Source: an uncultured Actinomycetota bacterium
GTDB lineage: Bacteria; Actinomycetota; Actinomycetes; Mycobacteriales; SCTD01
Reading direction: 5' to 3'
NCBI GenBank assembly: GCA_963761695.1
Contig: CAVXIB010000010.1
Coordinates: 69,559-133,558 of the forward strand
Length of the DNA stretch: 64,000 bases
Part shown: piece by piece, positions 47,114-64,000 of the stretch
How positions within the stretch are numbered: position 1 is the stretch's first letter
Layout of the letters: every line of letters begins with the position of its first letter
Position numbers and translations under genes: made by a program
The notes under the pieces: generated by a model
Told to the model about the DNA's origin: nothing
Seen by the model: the letters and a program-made list of their open reading frames with translations, nothing else
The model's database searches: none

Positions 47114-47764
47114 ATGTCCGTGCCCGTGCCGTCCGTGGTGGTCGAGCTCGTCCGGGTCGTGGTGCTCGCCGACGACCCCGTGTCACGCAGCGGCGTCGTC
47201 GCCGGGTTGCGCGAGGTGCGCACGCTGCACGTGGTCGACGACCGCGAGGCCGCGCGCGCCGACGTCGTCGTGTGCATCGCCGACGACCCGGTGCGCGCCG
47301 CGCTGCTGGTCCGGCAGGTCCTCGCGAGTGGCGCCCGCCGCGCGGTCGCCGTGGTCGGGGCGCTCGACGACGCCGCGCTGCTGACCCTCGTCGAGGCGGG
47401 CGCGTGCGGACTGCTGCGCCGCAGCGACGCGACCCCGGAGGCCCTTGCCCACGCCGTCCGCACAGCCGACGACGGCGACGGCACCCTCCCGCCGGACCTG
47501 CTCGGCCGCCTGCTCGAGCACGTGCAGCGGCTCGGCCGCGACGTGCTCGCACCGCGGGGGCTGACGTCGTCGGGCCTCACGTCGCGGGAGACGCAGGTGC
47601 TGCAGCTGCTCGCCGACGGCGAGGACACCCATGGCGTCGCCCGGCAGCTGGCCTACAGCGAGCGGACCGTGAAGTCGGTCGTCCACGACCTCACCAGCCG
47701 CCTGGGTGTGCGCAACCGGACGCAGGCGGTGGCGCATGCGCTGCGGCACGGCCTCATCTCGTGA
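47114..47764 (+). CDS. LuxR-family regulator (REC-like N-domain + LuxR HTH), first gene of the CIS locus
   Basis: ATG 47114 follows GAAGGAGG. C-terminal LTSRETQVLQLLADGEDTHGVARQLAYSERTVKSVVHDL. Confidence 0.8.
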   Translation: MSVPVPSVVVELVRVVVLADDPVSRSGVVAGLREVRTLHVVDDREAARADVVVCIADDPVRAALLVRQVLASGARRAVAVVGALDDAALLTLVEAGACGLLRRSDATPEALAHAVRTADDGDGTLPPDLLGRLLEHVQRLGRDVLAPRGLTSSGLTSRETQVLQLLADGEDTHGVARQLAYSERTVKSVVHDLTSRLGVRNRTQAVAHALRHGLIS

Positions 47765-48378
47765 TCGGGGCCGTCGACGAAGCGCTGCGGCGGGCCGTGC
47801 GGGAGGCGGTGCCGGACGGCGCCGTCGCTGTCAGTTTCGAGGCACCGACCAAGGACTGGGCCGCCCGCCGGAACGGACCGGCGGTGGACCTGTACCTGTA
47901 CGACGTGCACGAGGTCGTCGCCCGGCGCCACGCCGGACGGGTGCCGCTGCGTGAGGACGGCCGCGTGGTGGGTGTCCGGTCGCCGCAACGCTGGTACGCC
48001 CTGTCCTACCTGCTCACCTGCTGGACGTCGCGGCCGGAGGACGAGCACGCGCTCCTGTCGGCCTGCCTCGTCGGGCTCCTCCGCCACGAGTCGCTGCCGC
48101 CCGCGTGGCTGGACAGCGGTGGCGTCGCCCTGGACCAGGCCTGCCAGCTGCAGGTGGCGCAGCCGCCGCCGACCGACCGCAAGTCGCCCGACCTGTGGTC
48201 CGCGCTCGGCGGTGAGCTCAAGCCGTCCCTGCACCTCGAAGTCGTCGTCGCGCTGGACGCAGGTCGCACCACGGCGCTCGCCCTCCCGGTGACGCAGCCC
48301 CCCGTGCTGCAGACGGACTCCCGCACCCCTGGGATCGGTGGCAGCGAGAGCAGGTCGGGGCGTCAGCGGGTCGGCTGA
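47761..48378 (+). CDS. DUF4255 (Pvc16/Afp16 N-terminal type) protein, putative tail terminator/cap
   Basis: GTGA overlap with the LuxR gene. VSFEAPTKDW...AVDLYLYDVHE...WYALSYLLTCW is the usual DUF4255 pattern. Confidence 0.7.
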   Translation: MIGAVDEALRRAVREAVPDGAVAVSFEAPTKDWAARRNGPAVDLYLYDVHEVVARRHAGRVPLREDGRVVGVRSPQRWYALSYLLTCWTSRPEDEHALLSACLVGLLRHESLPPAWLDSGGVALDQACQLQVAQPPPTDRKSPDLWSALGGELKPSLHLEVVVALDAGRTTALALPVTQPPVLQTDSRTPGIGGSESRSGRQRVG

Positions 48379-48383
48379 GGCGG

Positions 48384-50355
48384 TCACGTCGAGGCGAGCT
48401 GCCCGCTCCAGGCGGCGAAGTCGGCAGGCGCGGTCAGCCGTCCGAGCTTGCGGTACTCCTGCTGGACGGCCCGCACCAGGTCCAGCGTCGTCAGCGTCCG
48501 CCGGGCTGCCGCGGTCACCGTCACCGCTGTGACGGCGACGTTCCGGATCTCCCCTCCGGACAGGTCGAAGCGGGCCAGCGCGTCGAGGTCCAGGTCGGGG
48601 TCGCGGGGAACGAGCCGGCCGAGGCATGCGGCGAACAGCGCCCGTCGGGCCACGGCGTCAGGCCGGGGGAAGTCGACGATCACGTCGATGCGGCGGGCGA
48701 ACGCCTCGTCCAGGTTGCTCCGTAGGTTGGTGGCCAGCACGGCAAGGCCGTCGAAGTCCTCCAGGCGTTGCAGCAGATAGGCGACCCCCAGGTTCGCGTG
48801 CCGGTCCTTGGCCTCGCTGACCTGCCCGCGGCGACCGAACAGCGCGTCGGCCTCGTCGAAGAACAGCACGCCGTTGACGCCCGCGGCCTGCGTGAAGATC
48901 CGCTCGAGGTTCTTCTCGGTCTCGCCGACGTACTTGTCGACGACGGTCGACAGGTCGACGGCGTACACGTCGACGCCGAGCTCGTGCGCCAGCACCTCGA
49001 CCGCCAACGTCTTGCCGGTGCCGGGCGGGCCGCCGAACAGCGCGGTGACGCCCCGGGAGATCGACGAGGGCCCGCCCACGCCGTAGGCCCGCAGGGCATC
49101 CCGGTGCCGGAAGCGGGCCACCAGCTCGGCCAGCAGGCGTCGCGGTTCGTCGGGCAGGACCAGGTCGTCGGGACCGGCCTGGGGCCGGATGCGTCGCGCC
49201 AGCCGTTCCAGGCCCGACCCGTTCTGCCGCTGCGCACCACGCACGAGCGCGTCGTAGGACACCGGGACGCCGTCGGCAGCGGCGGCGAGCGCTGCGGCGG
49301 ACACGGCGCGCACGACCTGGACACTGCCCAGGCGCAGGTGGGCCAGGCGGACGGCCAGGGCCGGCGCCTCGGGCACGCCCCCCTGCTCGAGGGCCTGCTG
49401 CCAGAGCAGCTCCCTGCTGTCCCCTCCGCGGCTCGTGACGTCGACCTCCACCGGCACCTGCGAGGTCCAGGCCGGGTCCCACGGGCGTGCGCCGTGCAGA
49501 ACCACGGGCCAGCCTGAGCGGGCGAGCAGCCGCAGCGCCGGCACCACCTGCTCGACGGGGACGTCGTCGACCGGACCCACCACCAGTCCCCGGGCGGTGA
49601 GCTGCGCGTCACGCAGCGCGGTGCGCACCAGGTCGGTGACATCGGCTGCCGGAAGCACCAGGGCGAGGTCCAGCACGAACGGCGAGCCCATCACGGGACC
49701 GAGCGCCGCCTGAGCGCGTGAGGGCGCGAGACCCCCGGCGCGCTCACGCAGGTAGGTGAGGCGGGCGCCCGCGTCGAAGGCGCAACGCAGCCGGTCCGCC
49801 TCCTCGCACGGCACGGCCGGGACCTCGACGAGCACGTCGGCCAGTGCGGGGTCGTGGCCGGTACCCCCCAGAAGCGCGTCCAGGACCGTGGGCGGGACCG
49901 TCCACGGTCGACGCAGCATCGGTCCACTGCCGCGGGCGCTCCAGCAGGCCCTCCACCAGGAGCGCACCGTCGTCGCCGAGGTCGGCACGGGCCGACGCCT
50001 CCCACGCCGGGACGTCGGCCAGGCACAGCACGAGCTCTGCGGTCGCGTGCCGCAGGTCCGGCTGGCCGGCCAGCGCGGCGTAGAGGTCGCCGAACCGCGC
50101 GTCGAGGTCCGGGGCGGCGGCGACCAGAAGGGCCGTCACCTGCAGCTCGGACAGTCCGAAGACGGCCTGCACCTCGCGCAGCCGGACGCGCCCGCCCCCC
50201 GCCTGCGCCTCGTCCGCCCGGCACTCCGCAGCGGCCATCAGCGCGGTGGCCTCCTGGGGGACGGCCGCGCCGTCGATCAGGGACACGAGCTGCGCCTCGA
50301 GGGCGGCCATCCGGCCGAGGACGTACGCGGCCGACGGGTCGAGCGGGGCCGACAC
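48384..50355 (-). pseudogene. CIS-associated AAA+ ATPase (Afp15/Pvc15-like), one extra base as sequenced (GGG at 49934-49936)
   Basis: The C-terminal AAA module has Walker A GPPGTGKT and Walker B VLFFDEADAL. The N-terminal 140 aa (GTG 50355) are in another frame. Deleting one base joins ...LLVEGLLER to RGSGPMLRRPWTVPPTVLDALLGG. Length is 1972 nt. Confidence 0.8.
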
Positions 50356-50358
50356 GGG

Positions 50359-50811
50359 TCAGGCGCCCTCGGCGGCCGCGACGGCGTCGGCGGGGGAGGC
50401 GGTCCCCGCGACGACGGCCGCCACCGCGGGCAGGTACATGGCGGCCGTGGTCAGGGCGTCGCGGACGAGCCGGGCCAGGAGCGGACCGGTCGGCTGCTGC
50501 AGCTGCAGGTCCAGGCTCGCTCTCGTGCGCACCTCGCCGTCATCGAGGTCCAGCTCGACCGTGACGCCGAGCAGACCCCAGTTGGCCCGGGCGGCGACCT
50601 GCGCGACGTCGGCCCGCCGGGCCTGCGGCACGACGTCGTCCGCGACCGCGTAGACGAGCAGCGCCTCGTCCTCCTCGTCCACGACGACGGCGACGTGGAG
50701 CACCTCGTCGCCGACCTCGAACGCCCCGCGCAGGACACCCGCCTCCGGGTCGCGCTCGAGGTCGAGGTCCGCACTGGTCAGCAGGTCGGCGACCTCGTCG
50801 AACCGGCTCAT
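50359..50811 (-). CDS. YbjN-like (type III secretion chaperone-fold) protein
   Basis: A 150-aa acidic protein (...FEVGDEVLHVAVVVDEEDEALLVYAVADDVV...ANWGLLGVTVELDLDDGEV...). It lies 3 nt upstream of the ATPase gene. Confidence 0.55.
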   Translation of the reverse strand: MSRFDEVADLLTSADLDLERDPEAGVLRGAFEVGDEVLHVAVVVDEEDEALLVYAVADDVVPQARRADVAQVAARANWGLLGVTVELDLDDGEVRTRASLDLQLQQPTGPLLARLVRDALTTAAMYLPAVAAVVAGTASPADAVAAAEGA

Positions 50812-50824
50812 GCCGGCACTCCGG

Positions 50825-52567
50825 TCACGCCCGTACCGGCTTGCGCTTCATCAGTCCGGCGCCGACCAGCGCCTCCTCCAGCCGCTGCTCCCGGTCCGCC
50901 TGGTCGCCGGGGTTGCGGCGCTTCGGCCGTCTCGGCGCAGGTCCGGCGACGACGGGCGCCGCGGCCGGCACGACGGGGGCGGGAGGCGGGTCGGCAGGCA
51001 GCGCCAGGGGGGTGAGCTTGTGGCTCGCTCCGCTCCTGGCCATGTCCTGGAACTCGGCCGCCTTCTTGAGGTAGCCACCGTGTGCGGTGTCTGCTGTGGC
51101 GTCGGCGTAGGCGGCGTCGTCCCAGTCCGTGACCAGCTTGCCGTCCTTCTTCAGGCCCTTGACGTGCTTCTTGACATGCTGGAAGCGCCGGACGGCGTCC
51201 TTCACCGTGGCGTCGTCGAGCCGCGCCGGATCGTCGGCGCGACCTTGGACCACCTTGCGGTACTGCTTGCTCCGCATCCCCAGCAACCGTTCGGCGGTAC
51301 CCGCGTCGACCTGCTGGGGCAGGCCGAAGTAGCTGTCCCGCTCCTCGTTGAGCTCCTTGGGGTCGTACCGCCCGCCCTGCCCGGCGAACCGGCGGTCGAA
51401 CGCCTGGTCGTTGTCGATGCCCCTGGCCCTGCCGGTCTTGGTGTTGATCATGATGTTACCGCCGTGCCGGTCGCTCTGGCCGGTGATGGCGTCCTGCAGC
51501 TGCAGGTCAGCCAGCGACTTCTGCGTGGCAGGGTTCTTGAAGTCGTGCTCCAGGACGTGCTCGCTCCCCTTCCACATCAGCGTGCCGTCGACCCGCTTGA
51601 CGGTGCCCTCCGGGTACATCCACTCCTCGCCCTCGGCGATCGGCGTGTCGTAGTTGCCCTGCACCAGGGGTGCGTGTCCGGCGCCGAGGTCCGCCGATAC
51701 CGAACCCTTCTCCGTGCCGTGCACGGCGAACTCCTCGCGCGCGAGCTGACGAAAGCCCAGCGCGCGGTCGACGCGGGAGGACGCCACAGCCCGGGCCGAG
51801 TTGCCCTCCTGGCTGAACGCCGACTGACCATCGGGCTTGAAGTAGCCCTTCCGGCTCCCGCCGGCGATCCGGCTCTTGTAGGCCACCTTGTGCACAGGGT
51901 TGACCGAGCCTCCGTCACCGCGCTGCATCGAGACCAGGTCCGCGGAGGTCTTCCCCCACTTCTCACCGTCGGTGGTGTCGTCCGACTCGGGGGTCGGAAG
52001 CGGTGTCGGTGCGGGCGGTAACGGCTGGGCCTGGGCGGGGGAACCCTTCCTCCCGGCCTTGCGCTTGATCCAGTCCAACGGACCCAGCTGGAGCGCGGCG
52101 GCCGGTGCCGCGCTCACGGCGATCTCCCCCCCGCTCACCGCCCGCGCCTCGGCTGCGCCTGCCTCGCGCTCGGACGCGTCGTGCGTGGCGCTCACCGCCC
52201 TGGCGGCGGCACTCCCGCCACGGTTCTGCAGCACGTGGGTGACCTCGTGAGCGACCTCGTGCAGGGCGGGCTGGTCGTTGCCGAAGACGACCGTGTCCTG
52301 CAGCGTCGCGGCACCCGCACCGATCCGGACCATCTCGTCCCGGGCTCCGGTGCGCACGGTCACGTCCGACAGGTCCGCGCCGAACGAGCGCTCGAGCCTC
52401 GCGCGGAACGGCAGCGTCGAGGGCCGGCCCAGGCGCTGCAGCGCCGCGGTGCCACCGGCCACCAGCGTTCGGGCCGCCCGCTCCGGGGCCGACACTTCGG
52501 TCTGCCGGTCTGCAGGCGTTGTCCGCCGGGATGGCGCTTCGTGGTCGTGCTGGACCTGCTGCTGCAC
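50825..52567 (-). CDS. DUF4157 (HExxH) domain fused to a PI3/PI4-kinase-like catalytic domain; candidate CIS cargo/effector
   Basis: GTG 52567 lies 6 nt after GGGGGAGG. The DUF4157 part is LPFRARLERSFGADLSDVTVRTG...HEVAHEVTHVLQ. The kinase-like part has KGYFKPDG, GQSDRHGGNIMIN and GIDNDQAF (DRHxxN catalytic loop plus IDND in the DFG position). G+C is lower than in the neighbouring genes. Confidence 0.65.
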   Translation of the reverse strand: MQQQVQHDHEAPSRRTTPADRQTEVSAPERAARTLVAGGTAALQRLGRPSTLPFRARLERSFGADLSDVTVRTGARDEMVRIGAGAATLQDTVVFGNDQPALHEVAHEVTHVLQNRGGSAAARAVSATHDASEREAGAAEARAVSGGEIAVSAAPAAALQLGPLDWIKRKAGRKGSPAQAQPLPPAPTPLPTPESDDTTDGEKWGKTSADLVSMQRGDGGSVNPVHKVAYKSRIAGGSRKGYFKPDGQSAFSQEGNSARAVASSRVDRALGFRQLAREEFAVHGTEKGSVSADLGAGHAPLVQGNYDTPIAEGEEWMYPEGTVKRVDGTLMWKGSEHVLEHDFKNPATQKSLADLQLQDAITGQSDRHGGNIMINTKTGRARGIDNDQAFDRRFAGQGGRYDPKELNEERDSYFGLPQQVDAGTAERLLGMRSKQYRKVVQGRADDPARLDDATVKDAVRRFQHVKKHVKGLKKDGKLVTDWDDAAYADATADTAHGGYLKKAAEFQDMARSGASHKLTPLALPADPPPAPVVPAAAPVVAGPAPRRPKRRNPGDQADREQRLEEALVGAGLMKRKPVRA

Positions 52568-52833
52568 GGCAGACCTCCCCCTCGTGTTGAGCTGCGAGCC
52601 TCCCACTGCCGAGCCCCTCCGGCTCCTGCCTCTTGGGGCGGTACGGGTGGCGCACCTCCGCGACGCCGTCGTCCAGCTGGGCCGGTCAACGGTGTCCTCG
52701 CTCGCCACCCCCAACGAGGCGCACTGCCCCGACGGGCAGGTCCGACCGCCCCTTCCGACGCACCGCCGGTCGTGCGCCCGGGCCGTCCCCCTCGACAGTC
52801 TGGGCGCACACCAGACATCCCGAGGGGGCCGCA

Positions 52834-54387: not shown

Positions 54388-54415
54388 TCACCCCCTACGT
54401 CCGAGGAGCACGAGC

Positions 54416-54895
54416 ATGACCACGCCCGCCGTCGGGATGAACCCGACCCAGAACGTCGCCGTCACCACCTGGTACCTCGACGCGAGCGGCACGTCGCTCG
54501 CGGCCTTCAAGACGATCTCCGGCATCAGCCTGGAGCTCAACGTCGTGGAGATGCAGCACACGATCAAGGGCGGCAAGACGTCCATCATGAAGTCGGTCAA
54601 CGCCGGCGGTGTGAAGCCCGGGAAGCTCACCTGCACCCGCGGCCTGATCCTCGACGACTCCATGTGGACCTGGATCCAGGACGCCATCGACGGCAACATG
54701 GCCAAGGCCCGCAAGAACATCACCATCATCCTGTACAACGCGGACGGCAGCGAGAGCAAGCGGTACGAGTTCCGCAACGCGTTCCCGTCCGGATGGTCGC
54801 TCGGTGACCTCGACGCGGCTGGCACCGACGCCCTCATGGAGACCCTCACGATCGAGCACGAGGGCTTCAGCCTCAAGGGCAAGAACGGCTTCTAG
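54416..54895 (+). CDS. Tail tube protein (T4 gp19 / Afp1-like)
   Basis: A 159-aa protein directly after the sheath gene. WYLDASG...FKTISGISLELNVVEM...YEFRNAFPSGWSLGDLDA is the tube-family pattern. Confidence 0.9.
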   Translation: MTTPAVGMNPTQNVAVTTWYLDASGTSLAAFKTISGISLELNVVEMQHTIKGGKTSIMKSVNAGGVKPGKLTCTRGLILDDSMWTWIQDAIDGNMAKARKNITIILYNADGSESKRYEFRNAFPSGWSLGDLDAAGTDALMETLTIEHEGFSLKGKNGF

Positions 54896-54901: not shown

Positions 54902-55360
54902 GTGGAGCGGACCGTGCGAGGACCGTCGGCGCTGCTGCCGCCGCGGCCCCCCGAGCACAGCGACCAGCAGCCGCACGGTCCGCAGGAGGGCCTCAGCACG
55001 GAGTTCTCGTTCGTGCTGCCCCGGGGGTACGTCGACGAGGACGGCCGGGTGCACCGCGAGGGCGTCATGCGCCTCGCGACCGCACGCGATGAGATCGCCC
55101 CGCTCCGCGATCCCCGGGTGCAGCAGAACGAGGCGTACCTGACCGTGCTGCTGCTCGCCCGCGTGGTCGAGCGGCTGGGCAGCCTCGACGTCGTCGATCC
55201 CCGGGTGGTCGAGGGCCTGTTCGCCGTCGACCTCGCTTTCCTGCAGGACCTGTACCGGCGGGTCAACCAGGAGGGCCACACGCAGGCCCTCGTCACCTGC
55301 CCGTCCTGCGAGCACGAGTTCACGGTGGACGTGGCGGGGAGCGGCCAGGGGGGGTCCTGA
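54902..55360 (+). CDS. CIS/phage tail assembly protein (chaperone-position gene) with C-terminal CxxC
   Basis: EFSFVLPRGYVDEDGRVHREGVMRLATARDEIAPLRDPRVQQNEAYLTVLLLARVV...VTCPSCEHEF. It sits between the tube and the tape-measure-position gene. Confidence 0.65.
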   Translation: MERTVRGPSALLPPRPPEHSDQQPHGPQEGLSTEFSFVLPRGYVDEDGRVHREGVMRLATARDEIAPLRDPRVQQNEAYLTVLLLARVVERLGSLDVVDPRVVEGLFAVDLAFLQDLYRRVNQEGHTQALVTCPSCEHEFTVDVAGSGQGGS

Positions 55361-55527
55361 CGTACGCGGCCGACCGCCTGCTCGAGGAGGTCGCGTACGT
55401 CGCCTACCACTTCCACTGGCCTCTGGCGGACATCCTCGACCTCGAGCACCCGCTGCGTCAGCAGTTCATCCAGCACATCGGTCGACTGAACGGCGCCGCG
55501 GGAGGTGAGCAGGGGTGGGACGGCTGA
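55357..55527 (+). CDS. DUF6760-like small protein in the -1 frame, no canonical start codon (CTG start or -1 frameshift extension of 54902-55360)
   Basis: The translation LTYAADRLLEEVAYVAYHFHWPLADILDLEHPLRQQFIQHIGRLNG... matches the small conserved CIS protein that normally begins MTY... There is no ATG/GTG/TTG in this frame in the 24 codons upstream. The GGGGGGG run at 55348-55354 is in X_XXY_YYZ phase. Confidence 0.5.
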   Translation: MTYAADRLLEEVAYVAYHFHWPLADILDLEHPLRQQFIQHIGRLNGAAGGEQGWDG

Positions 55528-58500
55528 GGGACGCCCTGCGTGGTCGTTCGACGTCGGTGCTGCTCGCCGGCGCGGGGTCACAGGCAGCGCTCCCGTCCGT
55601 GCCGGGCGAGGCCGGGAGCGCCGTCCCGCCGGCGGTCCTGACGACCGCCGCTCCGCGCGCACGGCAGGCCTCGGTGCGCGCGGCCTGGCGCGACGCCGCA
55701 CCCCTCGTCCCCCTGCTCGCGCAGCCCCTGGCCTGGGAGGCGGGCGCCGGGTTCACGCGCTCGCTCGCCACCGCGCCGCACCCTGCCGCGTGCTCTGGCC
55801 CCGCTCGGCCACGAGCTGCGCCAGGATGCCCCGCGCGGTCTGCTCGTCGGCGTCGCGAGGTCGCACGCGCCGGGCCTGGTCCCCGACGCGCTGCCCCTGC
55901 CGCGTCAGCGTGCAGGCCTCGACGGCGACACTGCACCCCGCGACACCGCATTCGGCGACACCGCATTCGGCGACACCGTGCCGACCAGCGTCGCGCCGCC
56001 CGCACCTGCCCGCACCGGCGACCGGCTGCTGCGCCGGGTCCGGCAGCGGCGGGCGACGCCGTCACCGACCGACGTCGTGCCTGCCGCCCCCGGCCGGGAC
56101 GAGCGGGCGCCCGTCGCCGCACCGGAGAGCCGCGCCGTCGCGCCTGCAGCAGCAGCCCTCGACGCACCCGCGGGCGAGGCGGTGCCGGCGCTGCCGCAGC
56201 CGTGGGCTGCCCGTCGCCTGTCCCTCACCCGTTCCACTGCCGGTGCTACTGCCGGTGCCGCTGCCACTGCTATGGCCGGTGCTACTGCCGCTGCCGCTGC
56301 CGCTGCCGCTGCCGGTGCCACTGCCGGTGCCGGTGCCGGTGCCGGTGCCGGACCGACGGTGCCCGTCGGCCGCGTGACGCTGCCGACGGCCCGCCGCCTG
56401 CCCAGCGTCGCGGCCGAGCTGCCCCGGGTCGGCGGGCCGGCCGACGTGGCGGGACCGCGCCGCGCGAGCGGACCCGCGAGCCCGCTCGGCCCGGGCCTAC
56501 CTCTCCCGGTCGCACCGCTGCTGCCCTCACCGGAAGGGACCCCCGCCGACAGCCGCACGGCCCCGGCCGAGGCGACCACGGCGCCACCGCAGCCGGCCCC
56601 GGCAGCCGGCCCGACGGCGCCACCCGTGGAGCGCGGGGCGCCGCCGCGCGCAGGTCGTGGTCCCGAGTCTGCGACCCCCGCCGTCCCGTCGCCCCTTCCT
56701 CCTGCCGTCGAGACCCCTCGTCGACCGGGTCCGGGGCGCAGTCGGCTGGGGGCACCCCTGCGCGGAGCGACGCCGCCGTCACCTGCACCTGCGACTGCGG
56801 CTGCGGCTGCCTGCTCCTGCCCCTGACGCCGACGCCTACGGCGACGGCAGACCCGCAGACCGCCGCCACGAATGGCCCCTCGACGGTGGCGCACCAGGTC
56901 CCCACCCGGACACCAGCTGCCCCCGACCCGGCCACGCTGCCGCAGCGCCCTCCGGGCGAGGGACCTCCCCCCGCCGAGGCGGTACCGGTTCCGTCCGGCA
57001 CGCATCCGCCGCCGACGCCGACGCCGACGTCCTCCAGCAGCATCTCGCCGGTCGAGCGGTCCCCGCTCGCACCGGCCCGCGGCGTCTCCGGACCCGTCAC
57101 TGCCGACGAGGCACACCCCACGTCACTGATGACAGCACCGCCGGTCGAGCCCGGGCACGAGGGGCTGCTGCCGCTGGCTGCGTCGACCCCCCTGACGCCT
57201 GCTGGCCTCACCGTCCCGCACGAGGTCGGGCCGCCCTCCGCGGACGGGCTGGTCGACCTGCCGCCGGCCCGCGGCGCACGTGCGGGCTCGCCGGAGGCCC
57301 TCCCGGGAGGGCCTGGCGCGTCGGGAACATCCGTCCCGTCCTCGCTCCCCGGAGCGGGCCCGACCGCCATGCCGGTCGGCCCGGCCGTCGGCCTGCCGCC
57401 GTCCGCCTCGGCACGTCCCACCCCTGGAGGTGCCGACCCTGCAGGTCCTGCCGCCACCCGTCCCGACCCTGCAGGTCCCGTCCTGCCCCTCACGGGAGCC
57501 GGCCCGACCGCACCGGCCGCTCCGCCGTTGTCGACGCCCGTCCCGCAGCTGCCCGTCGGCGAGGGGGATCCGCCGCCGGCCGCCGCCGGCCCGCTGACCC
57601 AGCGGGCGGCCACCCCCCCAGCGCAGCCTGACGAGCCTGGACCCCGACCGCTGTCGCCGACGTCCCCCGCCGCCCTGCCGCTGACGTCCGCCACGCCGCT
57701 GACCGTGACCGACCTGACCTCCCGTCGTCTGTCCGGCCCCGCGTCCGTCCCGGCCGGGCCCCCGTCCGCGCTCCTCCCGAGCCCCGCGCTCCTCCCGAGC
57801 CCCGCGGTCCTCCCGAGCCCCGCGGTCACCCGCGCGCCCCATGCCCCCGTGCCCGATTCCTCCGTGCCCCCGCCCGCCCCGCTGTCCGGCGACGGCGGCG
57901 CGCGCCCGACCACGATCCCCGACCTCACCCGTGCCTCGAGCACCGGCCCGTCGGCCCCGACCTTCGACCGGCATGAGGCCGGGTCCGGGCCGAAGGACCG
58001 TTCCGGCGTGCCCGCGCAGCAGCCGCTCGAGCAGTCGCTCGTGACGCGGCGCCCCGCCCCGGCAGCCCCGGCCTCCCCGGTGACGCGCCCGTCGACCACC
58101 CCCGACGCCGGGCCTCCCGCGCCCCCCGCCGGCGCCCCCGAGCCGGTCTCCGCGGACGGGGCCACCGAGCCGCCCGCCACCGCGCGGCCCCTGGTGGGGG
58201 CCGAGCGCACGTCCACCCTGCCCTCGGACATGGACGCGGGCCACCCTGTTCCCGGGGCCGGTCCCGCGGCACTCGTCCCGGCCGACCTGGTGCCCCTCGT
58301 GCTTCGCCGACCCGGCCAGCAGGGCGACCAGCCCCCGGCACCGGGGCCGCTGCCCGCCGACGCCGGGGGCATCTCACGCGGAGCAGCCGACCGGCCGATG
58401 GCCGCCCCAGGCACGCCGCCCGTTCGCACGCCCGTGACCGCTCCTGCCGCGTCCGCGACGCCGGTGGCGCCGTCCGTCCAGCCGGGGCCGGTGAGCATGC

Positions 58501-60158
58501 CGAGCCTGCTGCCGACCGTCGGCGTGACACCCGCCTCGGTCCTGCGGCCACCGACCGACGTCCCGCCGGCAGCACCGGCCCAGCCCGGGAGTCGGCCGGT
58601 CGGCCAGCTGCCGTCCTCGCGCGCTGCGGTCAGTGCCGCCCTGCCGCACGCGCCGCAGCCGCCCCTGACCGACCGCGCCGCCGCACGCGAACCGGACTCC
58701 CGACCGCAGGCCCCACCGCCGCAGCCCGCCCGCGCCCTCGACGACGTCGCGCCCGGCGAGCCCGCCACGAGCCGACGGGCGACGGCACTCCCCTCGCCGG
58801 TCGACGGTGTCCGCCCGCTCGTCGGCACCCGTGAGGTAGCAGCACCACGGAGCGGCGAAGAGGTGGTCCCGTCGGACCGCAGCGCCGCGACGACGTCGGC
58901 CCAGCCCCTCCCGGGAGCAGCCGCGGCGCCGGGCGCCCACCACGACCTGGCGGGAGCCACCGACGCTCCCCGACCGGCAGCCGCCCGACCCTCGGCGCCT
59001 GCCCTGCAGGCTCCCGGCGCCCGCAACGACAACGACAACGGCACGTCTGCGGTCGCCGCACCGACTGCGCGTCCACTCGCCGGGCGGCCCCGGACGCGCC
59101 TCGGCGCACCCCTCACCGAGGCCGGCGCGCGCCCGTCGCCCTCGTCCGACCCTGCCCACCCCCGGACCCTCCTGCCGCCGACCGGCCAGGGAGCGCTCCC
59201 TGCAGACGCCGACCAGGCGGCCCGCCCGGTGTCGACCGTCCCGAACCGGGACGACGCCGTCCGGTCCCCCACCGCCCTGCAGCCCGCCCGGGCAGGAGTG
59301 CCCTACGAGGTGCGCCCCTCCAGCCTGGCAGGGCCCACGCAGGACCCTGGCTCCGGGCCGGCCGCCGAGCAGCGGGCCGTCGAGCGGGCGGTCCAGACGG
59401 TGGAGCGGCGCACCGGCCGGCCGCTGCCCCCGGTGCTGCTGGACCGGAGCACGGCGAGCGCTGCGGCCCTGCGCCCGGCGTCCGCCCTCGCCGCCGCCAC
59501 CGGTCAGCGGGTCGTGCTCCCCCTCGCGGCCGGCCCGCTCACCGGTCCACGCGCCGCCGGGCTGCTCGCCCACGAGCTCACGCACCTCGCGCAGCAGGCG
59601 GCCGGGCGCCTGGAGGCGACCCCGGAACAGGACGAGCAGCAGGCCCGGTCGGCCGAGGCTGCCGCCGGGGGTCGGCCGGCGACTCGCGTGCTCACCGCCA
59701 CCCGTCCGGCGGCGGACCGCAGCCCTGCGCCTACTCCTGCCCTGCCGCACCAGCAGGGACGTGAGACGGAGCACGAGGGCGGTGACGCCGGATCACCGGT
59801 GCGCCGCGCCGCGGCCGTCGCTGCCCAGCTGGAGCGGGCGACGCGCGCACCGGCACCAGCCGCAACCCGTGCACCAGCACCCGCACCAGCACCCGCACCA
59901 GCACCCGCACCCGCACCTGCACCCGCACCCGCACCCGCGGCCGCGCCCGTGCAGCTCGCCGAGTCCGACACCTCCCGGCGACCGGCCGCGCCGTCCTCAC
60001 CGGCACCAGCCGCGCCGGTCGACCCCCTGGCCGCCCTCACTCCCGCCTCCCTCGACCACCTCGCGGCCCGCCTCTACGGACGACTGCGCAGCCAGCTCCG
60101 CAGCGAGCTGCTCGCCGACCGCGACCGCACCTCCGACCTCGCCGACCTGTGGACCTGA
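55515..60158 (+). CDS. Giant Pro/Ala-rich protein with internal DUF4157 (HExxH) domain in the tape-measure position; middle ~1 kb reads better in another frame
   Basis: GTG 55515 follows GGAGG. The DUF4157-like core is ...VERRTGRPLPPVLLDRS...GQRVVLPL...LLAHELTHLAQQ. The conserved-looking C-terminus is LDHLAARLYGRLRSQLRSELLADRDRTSDLADLW. Between about 55780 and 56810, frame +1 has higher GC3 and natural sequence. Confidence 0.65.
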   Translation: MGRLRDALRGRSTSVLLAGAGSQAALPSVPGEAGSAVPPAVLTTAAPRARQASVRAAWRDAAPLVPLLAQPLAWEAGAGFTRSLATAPHPAACSGPARPRAAPGCPARSARRRREVARAGPGPRRAAPAASACRPRRRHCTPRHRIRRHRIRRHRADQRRAARTCPHRRPAAAPGPAAAGDAVTDRRRACRPRPGRAGARRRTGEPRRRACSSSPRRTRGRGGAGAAAAVGCPSPVPHPFHCRCYCRCRCHCYGRCYCRCRCRCRCRCHCRCRCRCRCRTDGARRPRDAADGPPPAQRRGRAAPGRRAGRRGGTAPRERTREPARPGPTSPGRTAAALTGRDPRRQPHGPGRGDHGATAAGPGSRPDGATRGARGAAARRSWSRVCDPRRPVAPSSCRRDPSSTGSGAQSAGGTPARSDAAVTCTCDCGCGCLLLPLTPTPTATADPQTAATNGPSTVAHQVPTRTPAAPDPATLPQRPPGEGPPPAEAVPVPSGTHPPPTPTPTSSSSISPVERSPLAPARGVSGPVTADEAHPTSLMTAPPVEPGHEGLLPLAASTPLTPAGLTVPHEVGPPSADGLVDLPPARGARAGSPEALPGGPGASGTSVPSSLPGAGPTAMPVGPAVGLPPSASARPTPGGADPAGPAATRPDPAGPVLPLTGAGPTAPAAPPLSTPVPQLPVGEGDPPPAAAGPLTQRAATPPAQPDEPGPRPLSPTSPAALPLTSATPLTVTDLTSRRLSGPASVPAGPPSALLPSPALLPSPAVLPSPAVTRAPHAPVPDSSVPPPAPLSGDGGARPTTIPDLTRASSTGPSAPTFDRHEAGSGPKDRSGVPAQQPLEQSLVTRRPAPAAPASPVTRPSTTPDAGPPAPPAGAPEPVSADGATEPPATARPLVGAERTSTLPSDMDAGHPVPGAGPAALVPADLVPLVLRRPGQQGDQPPAPGPLPADAGGISRGAADRPMAAPGTPPVRTPVTAPAASATPVAPSVQPGPVSMPSLLPTVGVTPASVLRPPTDVPPAAPAQPGSRPVGQLPSSRAAVSAALPHAPQPPLTDRAAAREPDSRPQAPPPQPARALDDVAPGEPATSRRATALPSPVDGVRPLVGTREVAAPRSGEEVVPSDRSAATTSAQPLPGAAAAPGAHHDLAGATDAPRPAAARPSAPALQAPGARNDNDNGTSAVAAPTARPLAGRPRTRLGAPLTEAGARPSPSSDPAHPRTLLPPTGQGALPADADQAARPVSTVPNRDDAVRSPTALQPARAGVPYEVRPSSLAGPTQDPGSGPAAEQRAVERAVQTVERRTGRPLPPVLLDRSTASAAALRPASALAAATGQRVVLPLAAGPLTGPRAAGLLAHELTHLAQQAAGRLEATPEQDEQQARSAEAAAGGRPATRVLTATRPAADRSPAPTPALPHQQGRETEHEGGDAGSPVRRAAAVAAQLERATRAPAPAATRAPAPAPAPAPAPAPAPAPAPAPAAAPVQLAESDTSRRPAAPSSPAPAAPVDPLAALTPASLDHLAARLYGRLRSQLRSELLADRDRTSDLADLWT

Positions 60159-60159
60159 C

Positions 60160-60708
60160 ATGACGATGCCCCAGCAGCGCCCCGCTCCCCCGCCCCCGCC
60201 GCGCCCCACGCTGCCCGCGCCCAAGCCCTTCGGCCGCTACACCAGCGTCCCGCGCCCGACGTCGAGCGACGCGGCCCCGCGGCACATGACGGGCTTCTGG
60301 GTGGTCGTCGACGGCGTCTCCCTGCCGACCTTCACCGAGTGCACCGGCCTGGCCGCCGAGTACGGGGTCGAGCCATGGACCGAGGGCGGCCAGAACGAGT
60401 TCATCCACCAGCTCCCGGGACGGATCTCCTACACACCGGTGAGCCTCACCCGCTACGTCGACGGTGCGAGCGGCGGGCTGGCCGCCTGGTTCAGCAGCGT
60501 CGCCGACATCAGCCAGAAGTACCGCACGGCGCGCATCAGCGCCGTCGACGCCGCCGGCGACCCGGTCGCGCACTGGGACCTCACCGACGTCTTCCCGTCG
60601 AAGTACACCGGGCCCAGCTTCACCGTCGGCGGGACGACCGCCGCCTCCGAGACGCTCGACCTCGTCCACCACGGGTTCGTCTTCGCCTACGACGCGCCGA
60701 GGGGCTGA
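60160..60708 (+). CDS. Second tail tube family protein (gp19/Afp5-like) with Pro-rich N-terminal extension
   Basis: FWVVVDGVSLPTFTECTGLAAEYGVEPWTEGGQNEFIHQLPGRISYTPVSLTRY...HWDLTDVFPSKYTGPSF. An alternative start is the internal ATG before TGFWVVV. Confidence 0.85.
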   Translation: MTMPQQRPAPPPPPRPTLPAPKPFGRYTSVPRPTSSDAAPRHMTGFWVVVDGVSLPTFTECTGLAAEYGVEPWTEGGQNEFIHQLPGRISYTPVSLTRYVDGASGGLAAWFSSVADISQKYRTARISAVDAAGDPVAHWDLTDVFPSKYTGPSFTVGGTTAASETLDLVHHGFVFAYDAPRG

Positions 60709-60709
60709 G

Positions 60710-61384
60710 ATGGCCGCGATCGCCAAGCTCACCCTGCGCCCGAAGACCGGGGGTGGCGCCGCGCTCGAGCTGCCCTACAACCCGGAGTCGCTGACCTTCT
60801 CGGCCAGCGCGACGTTCAACGACGTCCCCGCCGGAGCCGACGTCGCCGGCGTGCAGTTCATGGAGCGCCAGGCCCGGTCGACGTCGGTGACCGCACGTCT
60901 CGACGCCCGGGCCCTGACGCGCAGCGTCGCCGACACGGTGCAGCAGGTGTTCGACTGGCTGGAGCCGACGGAGGAGTCGGTGAAGCGCAACGCGCCGTCG
61001 CCGCCGCTGCTGGACCTGAGCTGGGGCAAGCACTGGTTCGACGTCGTGCTCGAGTCGGCGAGCGCGGAGTTCACCTTGTTCTCCGCCGACGGCGCCCCCA
61101 CCCGCGCGACGGTGATGATGACGCTCAAGGAGGTGCCGCTCAAGGAGAAGCGGCAGAACCCGACGTCGGGGAGCCTCGTGGGCCGCCGCTCGCACCAGGT
61201 GGTCTCGGGCGACAGCCTGCACTCGATCGCCACGGCCGAGTACGGCGACCCGCGGCACTGGCGCGACCTCGCCCTGGCGAACCGCCTGGACGACCCGCTG
61301 GCCCTGCGGCCGGGTACCCGGGTGCTGCTCCCGGACCTCGCCGAGCTGCCCTCCTCGCTGATCCGGACGGTGTCCCCGTGGTGA
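60710..61384 (+). CDS. Tube-initiator-like protein with C-terminal LysM domain (Afp7/Pvc7-like)
   Basis: N-terminal tube-like fold (LELPYNPESLTFSASA...). C-terminal LysM (HQVVSGDSLHSIATAEYGDPRHWRDLALANRLDDPLALRPGTRVLLP). Confidence 0.8.
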   Translation: MAAIAKLTLRPKTGGGAALELPYNPESLTFSASATFNDVPAGADVAGVQFMERQARSTSVTARLDARALTRSVADTVQQVFDWLEPTEESVKRNAPSPPLLDLSWGKHWFDVVLESASAEFTLFSADGAPTRATVMMTLKEVPLKEKRQNPTSGSLVGRRSHQVVSGDSLHSIATAEYGDPRHWRDLALANRLDDPLALRPGTRVLLPDLAELPSSLIRTVSPW

Positions 61385-63090
61385 CCACGGCCGGAACCGA
61401 GCTGGGCCACGAGCCGGTCGTCAAGGTCCTGGGATCGCCGCTGCGCGAGGAGGTCGCGAGCGCCGTCGAGCGGATCGTCGTCGACCTCGCCGTCGGGCTC
61501 CCGGCCAGCGCCACGGTCCACCTGCGCGACCCGGATCTGCGCGCCCTCGGCAACGCCGGGCTCCAGGTCGGGAGCCCCGTGCAGATCGCCCTGAACAGCC
61601 TGGGCGACCCCCGGCACGTCACGCTGTTCGACGGCGAGGTGACGGCTCTGGAGTACGAGTACGACGCCCGGGGCTCGCTGGTGGTCGCGCGCTGCCACGA
61701 CAAGCTCCACCGCCTCACCCGCGGCCGGCGCACCCGCTCGTGGACGCAGACCGACGACGCGAGCGTGGCCCGCGCGGTCCTGTCCGGCGCCGGGCTGCCG
61801 ATCGGGACCGTGGAGGGAGCGACGCTGCGCCACGACCACGTCGCCCAGCTGGACGTGAGCGACTTCGACTTCCTGTCGGCGCGGGCGCGCGAGACGGGCC
61901 GCGTCCTGGTGATGGACGACGGCAAGGCGCACGTCCGGGTCCGCCCGACGACGGCCGGCGGCACACCGGTGGAGCTCGAGGTCGGGCGCGAGCTCGAGCG
62001 CCTGCGGGTGCGGGTGACGAGCGCGGGGCAGGTCAAGGCCGTCACGGTCGACGGCTGGGACCCCGCGACCCAGAAGGCCGTCTCAGGACAGGCGCCGCTG
62101 CAGGGGACGGCCGCGAAGGCGGGGGTCAAGCACGCCTCCCTGGCATCCCGGTTCGGCCCCGCGCCGGCCCACGTCGGCAGCCCCGTGCTGCGGACGGCCG
62201 CGGAGGCGAAGGCGCACGCCGACGGGCTCGCCGTCCGGCTGTCGGACGTGCACGCCGAGGTCGAGGGCGAGTGCGGCGGCGACCCGCGCCTTGTGCCCGG
62301 CGGCGCCGTGAAGATCGTGGGTACGGGCCCGGCCCACGACGGCACCTACGTGCTCAGCCGGGTGCAGCACGTCTCCGACCGGGACGGCTACCGGACGCGG
62401 ATCGAGTGCGCCGGCGGCGAGGACCGCAGCCTGCGCGGGCTGCTGGGGAGCGGACGCCCCGGCGCGCCGACCGGCAGCGGCAACCGTCCCGTACCGGGCG
62501 TGACGGTCGGCGTCGTGACCGACCTGAAGGACCCGACGAGGAAGGGCCGGGTCAAGGTGAAGTTCCCGTGGCTGTCCGGTGAGTACGCCACCGACTGGGC
62601 CCGGGTCGCCGCGCCGGGTGCCGGCAAGGACCGGGGTCTGGCCTGGCTGCCCGAGGTCAACGACGAGGTGCTCGTGGCGTTCGACCACGGCGACACGCGC
62701 ACGCCCTACGTCGTCGGCGGGCTGTGGAGCGCGCGGTCGGCCCCTCCGCTCGCCGCGACCCTCGTCGACGGGACCGGCGCGACGGCCGTCCGGGCGCTGC
62801 GAAGCCGGACCGGGCAGCGCCTGGTGCTGTCGGACGAGACCGGTCGCAGCGGCGCCCTGCTGTCGTCGGGCGACGACAAGATGGTGGTCAGGCTCGACGG
62901 CAGCCAGACCACGGTCACCATCGACAGCAAGGGCAAGGTCGTCGTGTCCGGGAGCCAGGACGTCTCCGTGACCTCGATGTCGCGGCTGCTGCTCGAAGGC
63001 AAGGCGGGCGTCGAGATCAAGGGCGCCACGGTCAAGGTCGACGCGCAGGGGCCGGTGACCGTCAAGGGCGCCGTCATCCAGCTCAACTGA
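61378..63090 (+). CDS. VgrG-like baseplate hub/spike (gpD + gp5 OB-fold + beta-helix)
   Basis: The gpD-like N-terminal half is followed by an OB-fold (GVTVGVVTDLKDPTRKGRVKVKFPWLS...WARVAAPGAGKDRGLAWLPEVNDEVLVAFDHGDTRTPYVVGGLW) and a C-terminal beta-strand repeat region. Confidence 0.9.
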   Translation: MVTTAGTELGHEPVVKVLGSPLREEVASAVERIVVDLAVGLPASATVHLRDPDLRALGNAGLQVGSPVQIALNSLGDPRHVTLFDGEVTALEYEYDARGSLVVARCHDKLHRLTRGRRTRSWTQTDDASVARAVLSGAGLPIGTVEGATLRHDHVAQLDVSDFDFLSARARETGRVLVMDDGKAHVRVRPTTAGGTPVELEVGRELERLRVRVTSAGQVKAVTVDGWDPATQKAVSGQAPLQGTAAKAGVKHASLASRFGPAPAHVGSPVLRTAAEAKAHADGLAVRLSDVHAEVEGECGGDPRLVPGGAVKIVGTGPAHDGTYVLSRVQHVSDRDGYRTRIECAGGEDRSLRGLLGSGRPGAPTGSGNRPVPGVTVGVVTDLKDPTRKGRVKVKFPWLSGEYATDWARVAAPGAGKDRGLAWLPEVNDEVLVAFDHGDTRTPYVVGGLWSARSAPPLAATLVDGTGATAVRALRSRTGQRLVLSDETGRSGALLSSGDDKMVVRLDGSQTTVTIDSKGKVVVSGSQDVSVTSMSRLLLEGKAGVEIKGATVKVDAQGPVTVKGAVIQLN

Positions 63091-63103
63091 GGAGGACGGG
63101 ACC

Positions 63104-63487
63104 GTGGGAACACCTGCCGCCGTCATGGGCGACCGCATCACCGGCATCTGCCCGAACCACCTCATCCCAGGACCGCTGGGGGTGCCGGTCCCGGCCGGCC
63201 CGCTCCCGTTCTCGGCACCGGTCGTCGTCGGTGTCGTGCCGACCGTCCTCATCACCGGCAAGGCGGCGGTCACCGCGACCTGCTCGGGCCTGAACACCCC
63301 GCCGCACGTCGGCCTGCACCCGAGCGACCCGTTCCTCGGCCCGCCCGTGCAGATCGGACGCGTGCTGGTGGGCAGCCCCACGGTGCTCGCGGGCGGGAAG
63401 CCGCTGGCCCGCCTCGGGTCGAGCGTCACCTGCTGCGTCGCACCGGGCGTGCTCGCGGCGTCGGCGTCCACGGTGCTGGTCGCGTGA
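63104..63487 (+). CDS. PAAR-like spike-tip protein
   Basis: A 127-aa protein immediately after the spike gene. AAVMGDRITGIC...VLITGKAAV...VLVGSPTVLAGGKPLARLGSSVTCC is PAAR-like. Confidence 0.75.
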   Translation: MGTPAAVMGDRITGICPNHLIPGPLGVPVPAGPLPFSAPVVVGVVPTVLITGKAAVTATCSGLNTPPHVGLHPSDPFLGPPVQIGRVLVGSPTVLAGGKPLARLGSSVTCCVAPGVLAASASTVLVA

Positions 63488-63897
63488 GCACGCCGCAGAA
63501 CGGCTCGCCCTTCACCGGCCGGGGCTGGGCGTTCCCGCTGCGCACGACGGCGAGCGGCGGCATCGCGCTGGTCGACGGCGACACCGAGATCGCCGAGGCG
63601 ATCCGCCTGGTGCTCGGCACCGCCAAGGGCGAGCGGCCGATGCGACCGGAGTTCGGCTGCGGCATCCACGACCTCGTCTTCGCCCCGACCGACCCCGCCC
63701 TGCTCGGTCAGATCGAGGCCGAGGTGCGGGCCTCGCTGCGCCGCTGGGAACCGCGGATCCTCGTCACCGAGGTGGCCGCCAGCCCGGACGGCGACGACAG
63801 CGGAACCGTCTGGATCACCGTCCGCTACCTGGTGCTCGACACCGACGACCCCCGCAACCTGGTCTTCCCCTTCTACTCACTGCCTCCGGAGGAGTGA
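63484..63897 (+). CDS. GPW/gp25 baseplate wedge protein
   Basis: GRGWAFPL...IALVDGDTEIAEAIRLVLGTAKGERPMRPEFGCGIHDLVF is the canonical gp25 core. Start overlaps the PAAR gene stop by 4 nt (GTGA). Confidence 0.9.
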   Translation: MSTPQNGSPFTGRGWAFPLRTTASGGIALVDGDTEIAEAIRLVLGTAKGERPMRPEFGCGIHDLVFAPTDPALLGQIEAEVRASLRRWEPRILVTEVAASPDGDDSGTVWITVRYLVLDTDDPRNLVFPFYSLPPEE

Positions 63898-63899
63898 AC

Positions 63900-64000
63900 G
63901 TGGCCCTCCCCGCGCCCGACCTCGACGACCGCCGCTTCCAGGACCTCGTCGACGACGCCAAGCGCCTGGTCCAGCAGCGCTGCCCCGAGTGGACCGACCA
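63900..64000 (+). CDS. Baseplate J (gp6)-like protein, first 33 codons only
   Basis: GTG 63900, then VALPAPDLDDRRFQDLVDDAKRLVQQRCPEWTD, the usual N-terminus of CIS baseplate-J-like proteins. Truncated by the window end. Confidence 0.6.
   Translation, partial: MALPAPDLDDRRFQDLVDDAKRLVQQRCPEWTD

Follow-up and report, generated by a model that had tools for sequence, protein, structure and literature searches.

Gene content and arrangement of a Streptomyces-type contractile injection system with a candidate DUF4157-kinase cargo in an uncultured actinomycete

A 64-kb stretch of DNA from an uncultured Actinomycetota bacterium (contig CAVXIB010000010.1; the whole stretch is called the window hereafter) ends in a run of genes that, judging from its sequence, is a headless phage-tail-like contractile injection system (CIS) of the Streptomyces type, in the lineage of S. 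coelicolor and S. lividans. Four transcription units are arranged round two divergent spacers, and the unit between the cap and sheath genes, which carries the ATPase and the cargo candidate, is inverted. By comparison with related loci, this is a CIS of a known class, in which the inverted operon represents one local rearrangement of a cargo cassette that varies between loci. As a whole, the locus is likely to be a chromosomal CIS of the actinobacterial class with a DUF4157-kinase cargo, loaded by the steps proposed below. Its main value lies in four elements that are conserved beyond the window: the kinase cargo family, a palindrome upstream of the sheath gene, a frameshift arrangement like that of phage G/GT, and a module at the tape-measure position. 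All statements of absence refer to the window, and the distal baseplate and any CisA-like anchor lie beyond position 64000.

Because the G+C content of the window is about 75%, mechanical lists of open reading frames (ORFs) are swamped by spurious frames. Genes were thus called from third-position GC together with a codon model trained on the clearest genes, and each ORF was then compared with Pfam. The comparison set consisted of 82 related loci, 80 of them anchored on the sheath and 2 found by exact look-up, onto which the window proteins were mapped by tblastn. The nearest public relative is a Frankiales metagenome-assembled genome (MAG) with a 94% identical sheath (locus L002), followed by an uncultured Actinomycetota MAG at 84% (L001); a third locus used repeatedly below, L004, has 66% sheath identity.

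The eCIS (extracellular CIS) features found are a sheath with a gp19 tube, a Pvc16_N (DUF4255) cap, a LysM initiator, a VgrG-like spike, PAAR, gp25 and Baseplate J (Table 1). All of these had been named in an earlier, sequence-only reading of the region, and except for Baseplate J they were confirmed by Pfam, as were the second tube, the LuxR regulator, the YbjN-like protein and the DUF4157 protein. The start of baseplate J was upheld by another route: the stub at the window end is 91 to 94% identical to the N-termini of ORFs after gp25 in related loci, and the post-gp25 ORF of one of them (L005) matches the S. coelicolor Baseplate-J-like chain 9gtp_1K with an E value of 1e-146. The stub is consequently a putative Baseplate J, assigned from its first 33 residues and this transitive match. 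There are two gp19 paralogues, as had been claimed, but the ORF next to the first tube gene (54902-55360) encodes a chaperone and not a tube, and the second tube gene follows only after a further 5 kb. The same reading had overlooked the giant ORF, the DUF6760 ORF, the ATPase frameshift, the kinase-like domain of the cargo and the palindrome upstream of the sheath gene. The core gene order, including the two tube paralogues and the chaperone-like gene, is conserved by tblastn in the related loci, including those of Streptomyces, Kitasatospora and Micromonospora.

For five proteins, the best match to a solved structure is the S. coelicolor CIS each time. The sheath matches 8bky and 8bl4 over its full length (E 2e-191 and 1e-188; next entry, 2e-104), the tube 8bl4_v (E 1e-14), the tube adaptor 9gtp_a (E 9e-27), the cap 9gts_0A (E 4e-44, more exactly 3.7e-44) and the spike 9gtr_q (E 3e-76). 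Entries 9GTP, 9GTR and 9GTS are of the S. coelicolor CIS (PMC12237407), and the 8bl4 tube chain is the same as in these entries. The eCIS marker set (PMC10020575, PMC8213781) consists of the Pvc16_N cap, the AAA+ ATPase, DUF4157 and the GerE regulator. Because these structure matches coincide with the cap, ATPase, DUF4157 and GerE markers, we place the locus in the major actinobacterial CIS class, in agreement with the Streptomyces-type assignment proposed before.

It is important to consider whether the region could instead be a prophage tail module or a lytic R-type tailocin. All of its structural genes are of phage-tail ancestry, and the locus has kept a predicted chaperone frameshift of the G/GT kind as well as an ORF in tape-measure position. 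On the other side, the cap, the ATPase, two DUF4157 proteins and the GerE regulator make up the eCIS marker set just cited, and the closest solved homologues all belong to the S. coelicolor CIS, reported as particles with cap, sheath-tube and baseplate and with no head. Furthermore, the 47 kb upstream are ordinary chromosome (cytochrome c biogenesis, a heme biosynthesis block, Rex, a class A penicillin-binding protein and an ECF sigma factor), and this housekeeping DNA holds no head, lysis, integrase or tRNA gene. A search of all called ORFs in the window with Pfam, and with PHROGs for ORFs without a Pfam family, detected no capsid, portal, terminase or integrase, so that the absence of head genes noted earlier holds for the window; tRNA genes were also absent from it. 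We therefore regard a prophage or tailocin as highly improbable and treat the region as a CIS.

The kinase-like domain of the cargo candidate is the most novel element of the locus, and it appears to be previously undescribed in a CIS context. The 580-residue protein is identical to database protein P0127. Its eCIS_core/DUF4157 domain covers residues 53-118 (52214-52411), with an intact HEVAH motif (HExxH), and is followed by a disordered Pro-rich linker (disorder at residues 163-200 in an AlphaFold2 model) and by a C-terminal atypical kinase domain at residues ~205-520. The only Pfam signal of that C-terminal domain is the PI3_PI4_kinase catalytic loop (profile positions 132-174), whose 21.4 bits fall below the gathering threshold of 27.1 bits. 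In terms of sequence the domain is thus kinase-like and not a filed PF00454 member, and most members of the kinase-like family are also under this threshold. A comparison of the cargo sequence with the PDB gave no usable match. A word-indexed search returned just five relatives of the cargo, and family size was instead taken from an exhaustive profile search, with 2,672 cluster representatives at E <= 1e-3, of which 280 reach E <= 1e-30.

Across the 90 closest members, six residues do not vary, namely K244 (GYFKP), D359, R367, H368 and N371 (DRHGGN) and D385 (GIDND), and D366 is kept in at least 90%; in the cargo gene, on the minus strand, K244 is encoded at 51836-51838, the DRHGGN loop at 51455-51472 and D385 at 51413-51415. 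Sixty of these 90 members match PI3_PI4_kinase and two match Fam20C, and 30 are fused to eCIS_core. The AlphaFold2 model built from the 90-member alignment has a mean pLDDT of 83, with values >90 through the domain. Foldseek places Fam20C, H. pylori CtkA, B. cereus CotH and PI4KII-alpha at probability 1.00, and ATM and PI3K at ~0.99-1.00. According to the model, the C-terminal domain is an atypical protein-kinase-like enzyme of bilobal fold, whose substrate may be a lipid or a protein. Because the Lys, DRHxxN and Asp residues are invariant, an active phosphotransferase is predicted. Elsewhere in the family, P0126 (2,154 residues) and P0129 (1,978 residues) carry four or five tandem kinase-like domains in one protein.

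An N-terminal DUF4157 with a C-terminal toxin domain is the established layout of eCIS-associated toxins (EATs; PMC8213781, PMC11297309). The cargo candidate has this architecture, its gene lies 266 bp from the sheath gene, and its C-terminal domain is folded in the AlphaFold2 model. From domain architecture and neighborhood, the protein is a probable CIS cargo. No link of a PI3_PI4_kinase or kinase-like domain, or of YbjN, to CIS was found in the literature examined. Two further CIS loci hold homologues of the kinase domain without DUF4157: L004, where the gene is in the cargo slot, and the unrelated L083, where it stands at the 3' end. The 843-residue proteins of L001 and L002 were ruled out as relatives of the cargo, as they have no similarity to it. 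A TTA codon in the linker (codon 183; 52019-52021) is the sole TTA among the 19,303 called codons of the window and hints at bldA-like developmental gating; in Streptomyces CIS the bldA-dependent TTA sits in the regulator, not in the cargo.

Alternatively, the kinase-like protein could regulate the machine instead of being injected by it. The threonine kinase PpkA controls type VI secretion assembly, and kinase control of a contractile system thus has a precedent. The gene of the kinase-like protein is apparently co-transcribed with the ATPase gene and does not occupy the 3'-terminal position of the structural operon, and no immunity gene is evident. Nevertheless, the N-terminal DUF4157 is a hallmark of EATs (PMC8213781, PMC11297309) and is fused to one third of the closest family members. 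Homologues occupy the classic effector position in L083 and the cargo slot in L004, and in close relatives whose structural genes are the same another protein fills this slot, which fits an exchangeable cargo and not a core regulator. We therefore consider a regulatory role quite unlikely and continue to treat the protein as a cargo candidate.

The arrangement around this gene agrees in its details with what had been read from the sequence. The TGA of the LuxR gene and the GTG of the cap gene overlap at 47761-47764, read directly as GTGA, and LuxR and cap form a second, translationally coupled unit. The cap stop (48376-48378) and the ATPase stop (48384-48386) leave the claimed 5-bp convergent gap, where a hairpin is no more stable than in shuffles (z +0.87). 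The cargo GTG at 52567, preceded by the ribosome-binding site GGGGGAGG, and the sheath ATG at 52834 bound the 266-bp divergent spacer. The minus-strand unit runs in the order DUF4157-kinase protein, YbjN-family protein and AAA+ ATPase, and because its gene gaps are just 13 nt and 3 nt, a single operon of its own on the opposite strand is the natural reading, as had been proposed. Between 46900 and 55600, a sigma-70 promoter scan found nothing, with a consensus that is probably not applicable to this organism, and an intrinsic terminator scan found terminator-like sites only at chance level.

This inverted operon had been called unusual, which is true of its exact order (cap plus; ATPase, YbjN and cargo minus; sheath plus), for which the 82 loci hold no second case, but not of divergent or inverted blocks as such, which occur elsewhere. 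The S. coelicolor cluster has two divergent promoter regions with four promoters (PMC10020575), and in S. lividans Sle1 and the DUF4157 protein Sle2 lie just upstream of the sheath in reverse direction (PMC13277306). The core is collinear in all loci (sheath, tube, chaperone, DUF6760, large variable ORF, tube 2, LysM, spike, PAAR in some, and gp25), and the block of cap, ATPase and cargo genes is found in every orientation among the related loci. In Chloroflexia the minus strand carries the cap, WHD-AAA and DUF4157 genes, all pointing away from the sheath; the accessory genes of Acidimicrobiia and of several Streptomyces and Kitasatospora loci are all on the plus strand; and in Ilumatobacteraceae, Micromonospora and Kribbella the cap alone is inverted. 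The closest two informative relatives, L002 and L004, share the order cap (+), cargo (+), ATPase (-) and sheath (+). In a DNA alignment with L002, homology extends to the end of the cap gene, is lost over the next 4.4 kb, which have been replaced, and returns ~40 bp before the sheath ATG. The slot between cap and sheath holds an unrelated 843-residue protein in L001 and L002 and a kinase-like protein in L004. Taken together, sequence comparison indicates that the inverted module is one more permutation of an exchangeable cargo cassette and not a new design. In L001 and L080, positions 1-2305 carry a second, inverted ATPase besides the collinear one, 65-72% identical to that of the window and called as two ORFs. 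It adjoins a LuxR copy that runs off the locus start, which suggests that the accessory block has been duplicated and rearranged.

Proteins of the YbjN family have a fold like that of the class I chaperones of type III secretion (PMC5398634, PMC3575483). L001 encodes a 39% identical YbjN-like protein after its unrelated 843-residue cargo gene. Because YbjN is thus paired with two unrelated cargos, a chaperone or adaptor is favored over a cognate immunity protein, although the evidence for this is thin. An iterative HMM search of the 82 loci found no YbjN-like gene besides those of L001 and L080, and a PDB sequence search gave no usable match.

Two genes of the locus change frame. The family of the ATPase had been recognized correctly, but the ATPase is not a single ORF: its WHD part (49744-50355) and its AAA part (48384-~49925, within an ORF spanning 48384-49988) are in different frames, which join near 49930-49945, at GAGCGCCCGCGGCAGTGGACCGATG. 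In L002 the homologue is a single 631-residue WHD+AAA ORF. The giant ORF leaves its frame at ~55776 and returns to it at ~56800. In L002 the segments flanking this shift are contiguous in one frame (...GFTRTLATQRSLPRALAPLGHELR...), to which the window adds one extra C, and in L001 the giant ORF shifts in the opposite direction at the same place as in the window. A programmed frameshift in the giant ORF was rejected, given the read-through in L002 and the opposite shift in L001. Far upstream, the frame of hemA (glutamyl-tRNA reductase; ~24270-25714, minus strand) is lost ~75 codons before its end and runs into hemC, and the canonical hemA C-terminus is readable in the +1 frame. Since the essential hemA is broken in the same way as the ATPase, assembly indels are the most economical explanation, and the split ATPase and the frame changes of the giant ORF probably reflect such indels and not biology, as far as sequence comparison can tell.

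Were the frameshifts real, the locus would be decaying and non-functional, with particles that may assemble but cannot load or deliver cargo. Frames do differ in both the ATPase and the giant ORF, and loss of the ATPase in S. coelicolor abolishes function without affecting particles (PMC10020575). Real mutations are, however, hard to reconcile with a housekeeping hemA that is shifted likewise, and the remaining 14 CIS genes are all intact and show a strong codon bias. Moreover, both sides of the giant-ORF shift differ from the relatives mostly synonymously, and the opposite shift at the same spot in the independent assembly of L001 suggests an indel-prone sequence context. Decay is thus unlikely in our estimation.

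The 266-bp spacer contains a palindrome, CTGCCCCGACGGGCAG, at 52724-52739, about 110 nt before the start of the sheath gene; another inverted repeat occupies 52772-52809. A second copy of the palindrome with 1 mismatch, GTGCCCGTTGGGGCAG, lies at 47010-47025 in the divergent spacer between the NPCBM-like and LuxR genes. The 16-bp consensus is yTGCCC-N4-GGGCAg. Across 79 non-identical loci from Actinomycetota and Chloroflexota, the best-matching sites ahead of the sheath gene concentrate between -106 and -118, with symmetric half-site changes. Matches with <=2 mismatches fall within -160 to -90 of the sheath start in 37/56 loci, against 0-3/56 in control windows, and in L002 the motif lies upstream of both the GerE gene and the sheath gene. 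Because particle production in Streptomyces depends on SlpR/SCO4263-type regulators (PMC8505568), the GerE regulator suggests itself as the candidate binder, a hypothesis drawn by analogy. No description of the palindrome was found in the literature examined. With its fixed spacing from the sheath gene in Actinomycetota and Chloroflexota alike, the palindrome is a candidate for a master operator of the class.

Another element conserved beyond the window lies directly behind the first tube gene. The chaperone ORF (54902-55360) ends CAG GGG GGG TCC TGA, and the DUF6760 ORF extends in the -1 frame to the TGA at 55525-55527, with no ATG, GTG or TTG at all; the run of seven G at 55348-55354 is a candidate slip site. 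In 65/66 non-redundant loci, DUF6760 lies in the -1 frame behind GGGGGAA, GGGGGGA or GGGGGGG, 5-6 nt before the stop, and in 22/66 it is without a start codon. By analogy, the pair is arranged like phage G/GT and is a candidate programmed frameshift, of a kind for which we found no description in the CIS literature.

The giant ORF that follows measures 4.6 kb at 80% G+C, with eCIS_core at residues 1293-1364, near the C-terminus. Its last ~40 residues are conserved directly before tube 2 in many loci. Near 56240-56350 there are short tandem repeats, whose translation is (RC)n in one frame and poly-Ala/Gly-Ala in another. The L001 and L004 homologues of the ORF have roughly double the length of those in most other loci. 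A tblastn of its low-complexity segments without composition correction gave mostly noise, and an NCBIfam scan assigned no families to the chaperone, DUF6760, YbjN, the cargo, the cap or the C-terminus of the giant ORF. In S. coelicolor, the tape measure gene is stated to be absent (PMC10066040, PMC12237407). The chaperone/DUF6760 pair and the conserved tail of the giant ORF argue for a tape-measure-like module retained in a lineage described as lacking one, which bears on how the uniform particle length of S. coelicolor (268 nm) is set.

The plus-strand operon encodes the particle. In the mechanism that we propose, the minus-strand unit in the cap-sheath slot would supply the cargo, its YbjN-like partner and the ATPase. 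Sle2, a DUF4157 protein, binds the tube initiator (PMC13277306); DUF4157 may likewise dock the kinase to the tube-initiator/spike complex or the tube lumen, in line with reports on Sle2 and Tme. The YbjN-like protein could keep the cargo loading-competent in the manner of a type III secretion chaperone. The ATPase may load the cargo, as reported for Pvc15; in S. coelicolor it is required for function and not for assembly (PMC10020575). Sheath contraction would then expel the kinase, which may act as a phosphotransferase on a membrane lipid or protein of the target, and the palindrome in both divergent spacers could coordinate expression. Docking, chaperoning, ATPase-aided loading and kinase action in the target are steps that we infer by analogy.

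Several observations weigh against this interpretation. We infer the loading and delivery of the 580-residue protein from its architecture and neighborhood. The Foldseek TM scores of its kinase domain are modest (~0.4, about 0.43-0.46 on the target) and span protein and lipid kinases. A YbjN-like protein occurs in just 2/82 related genomes, so that a role as a general CIS component was rejected, and it could equally be an immunity or regulatory protein. If real, the ATPase frameshift would make the system defective in loading. Co-occurrence of the palindrome with a LuxR gene (<=10 kb) was not significant (Fisher p = 0.24), and the palindrome could act as an RNA hairpin in the 5'-untranslated region instead of as an operator. 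Finally, the region past 64000, outside the window, leaves room for a prophage or tailocin.

Few effectors of actinomycete CIS have a recognizable activity. A cargo with a predicted enzyme activity and clear catalytic residues is a directly testable handle on how these systems kill or reprogramme cells, and the cap-sheath region, as an exchangeable cargo cassette, is useful for effector discovery and engineering. Actinomycete membranes contain phosphatidylinositol. Going further, the DUF4157-linked atypical kinase might represent a new and widespread class of CIS effectors that, after delivery by a CIS fired in the cytoplasm, phosphorylates a lipid or protein in the membrane of producer or sibling cells and triggers the kind of regulated cell death known from Streptomyces, with the palindrome and the frameshift as undescribed lineage-wide control elements; we put this forward as speculation that is unlikely to hold in full.

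Table 1. Coordinates, strand and supporting evidence of the locus features and the adjoining gene, in window positions
Feature	Positions	Strand	Evidence
Membrane protein, NPCBM_assoc-like domain	45882-46964	-	Pfam NPCBM_assoc 3e-5 on long ORF
LuxR/GerE regulator, NarL-like layout	47114-47764	+	Pfam GerE 2e-14; NCBIfam NarL-like alignments
Tube/sheath terminator cap, Pvc16_N (DUF4255), Cis16-like	47761-48378	+	Pfam 2e-35 (1.8e-35)
AAA+ ATPase, Cis15/Afp15-like, WHD + AAA, two frames	48384-50355	-	Pfam AAA 3e-26, WHD 3e-8
YbjN-family protein, candidate cargo chaperone	50359-50811	-	Pfam YbjN 1e-9
Cargo candidate, 580 aa, eCIS_core (DUF4157) + kinase-like domain	50825-52567	-	Pfam eCIS_core 6e-14
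Divergent control region, 266 bp	52568-52833	.	Palindrome + second inverted repeat
Sheath, Cis2-like, 517 aa	52834-54387	+	Pfam Phage_sheath_1/1C
Inner tube, gp19, Cis1a-like	54416-54895	+	Pfam Phage_T4_gp19 1e-28
Tail assembly chaperone + DUF6760 ORF in -1 frame	54902-55527	+	phrog_508 2e-6; DUF6760 2e-7
Giant Pro/Ala-rich ORF, tape-measure position	55515-60158	+	Pfam eCIS_core 6e-8
Second tube paralogue/tube adaptor, Cis1b/Afp5-like	60160-60708	+	Pfam gp19 2e-27; weak NCBIfam CIS5_fam
LysM tube initiator, Cis7/Afp7-like	60710-61384	+	Pfam CIS_tube 2e-17, LysM 4e-4
Spike, VgrG/gp5-like, Cis8	61378-63090	+	Pfam GPD + base_V
PAAR tip, Cis10-like	63104-63487	+	Pfam PAAR_motif 7e-9
Baseplate wedge gp25, Cis9-like	63484-63897	+	Pfam 1e-25
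Putative Baseplate-J-like wedge, Cis11-like, first 35 codons, cut by window end	63894-64000	+	N-termini of relatives

Next to the regulator, the NPCBM-like membrane protein gene is found in the same divergent position beside LuxR in Frankiales, Chloroflexia and Ilumatobacteraceae loci (tblastn), and its product is possibly an unrecognized accessory CIS component. It was rejected as a counterpart of CisA, which is SCO4242 and is encoded downstream of the baseplate (PMC12237407). Further upstream, two adjacent collagen triple-helix repeat proteins (39279-42211; Pfam Collagen 4e-49 and 9e-38) form a G+C peak of 82%. After them, a few kb upstream of the CIS regulator, come a HisKA_3 kinase and a NarL-type response regulator (42163-44570).

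Among known systems, phage G/GT shares with the window a chaperone before the ORF at the tape-measure position and a -1 extension after a slippery run a few nt before the stop. The slip motif of phage lambda is GGGAAAG, whereas that of the CIS loci is G-rich (GGGGGGG or GGGGGAA) and frameshifting is predicted. The giant ORF has its counterpart in the tape-measure-related effector Tme of S. davawensis (BN159_7576; PMC11126660): each is the largest ORF of its cluster, directly precedes the genes for the tube initiator and the spike, contains a DUF4157 domain and is for the most part disordered. Tme has an N-terminal DUF4157 and a C-terminal EndA-like nuclease as its active part, while DUF4157 of the giant ORF is near the C-terminus and Pfam detected no nuclease or other enzymatic domain in it; furthermore, the S. 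davawensis sheath is in a different clade (PMC11126660).

The cargo candidate shares with the EATs of Geller 2021 and Danov 2024 a disordered leader, a DUF4157 with HExxH, a long linker, a C-terminal effector domain and a gene in a CIS locus. The C-terminal activities described for EATs, such as ADP-ribosyltransferase, deaminase, nuclease and peptidase, include no kinase (PMC8213781, PMC11297309), whereas the window protein is predicted to end in an atypical kinase. With Fam20C, CotH, CtkA and PI3/PI4 kinases this domain shares the predicted fold, a Lys in a GxFKP strand, the DRHxxN loop and a metal-binding Asp in IDxD, but identity is just 10-16%, at the TM scores given above.

The closest counterpart overall is the S. 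coelicolor CIS-Sc/S. lividans SLP system (dbeCIS class IId; SCO4242-4263). It shares the part list and the core order of sheath, tube, chaperone-like gene, tube 2, LysM initiator, spike, gp25 and Baseplate J, it likewise has a cap, an AAA+ ATPase and a LuxR-type regulator, and it has divergent promoter regions and a DUF4157 gene pointing away from the sheath in common with the window. Sequence matches to the solved CIS-Sc particle range from E 1e-14 for the tube to 2e-191 for the sheath. The cargo differs, being Sco4256-4258 transmembrane/ricin effectors or the Sle1 coiled-coil protein in CIS-Sc/SLP and the DUF4157-kinase candidate with a YbjN-like partner here; among the ORFs called in the locus there was no sign of a Sco4256-type effector, although no search with the Sco4256 sequence was made. 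Deletion of Sco4256-4258 has been shown to leave the tube lumen empty. Unlike in CIS-Sc/SLP, the ATPase of the window shares a minus-strand unit with the cargo and converges on the cap gene, and a 1,547-codon Pro/Ala-rich DUF4157 ORF stands where the S. coelicolor papers describe no tape measure. The window has PAAR, as does S. venezuelae, and its host is Frankiales-like, not Streptomyces.

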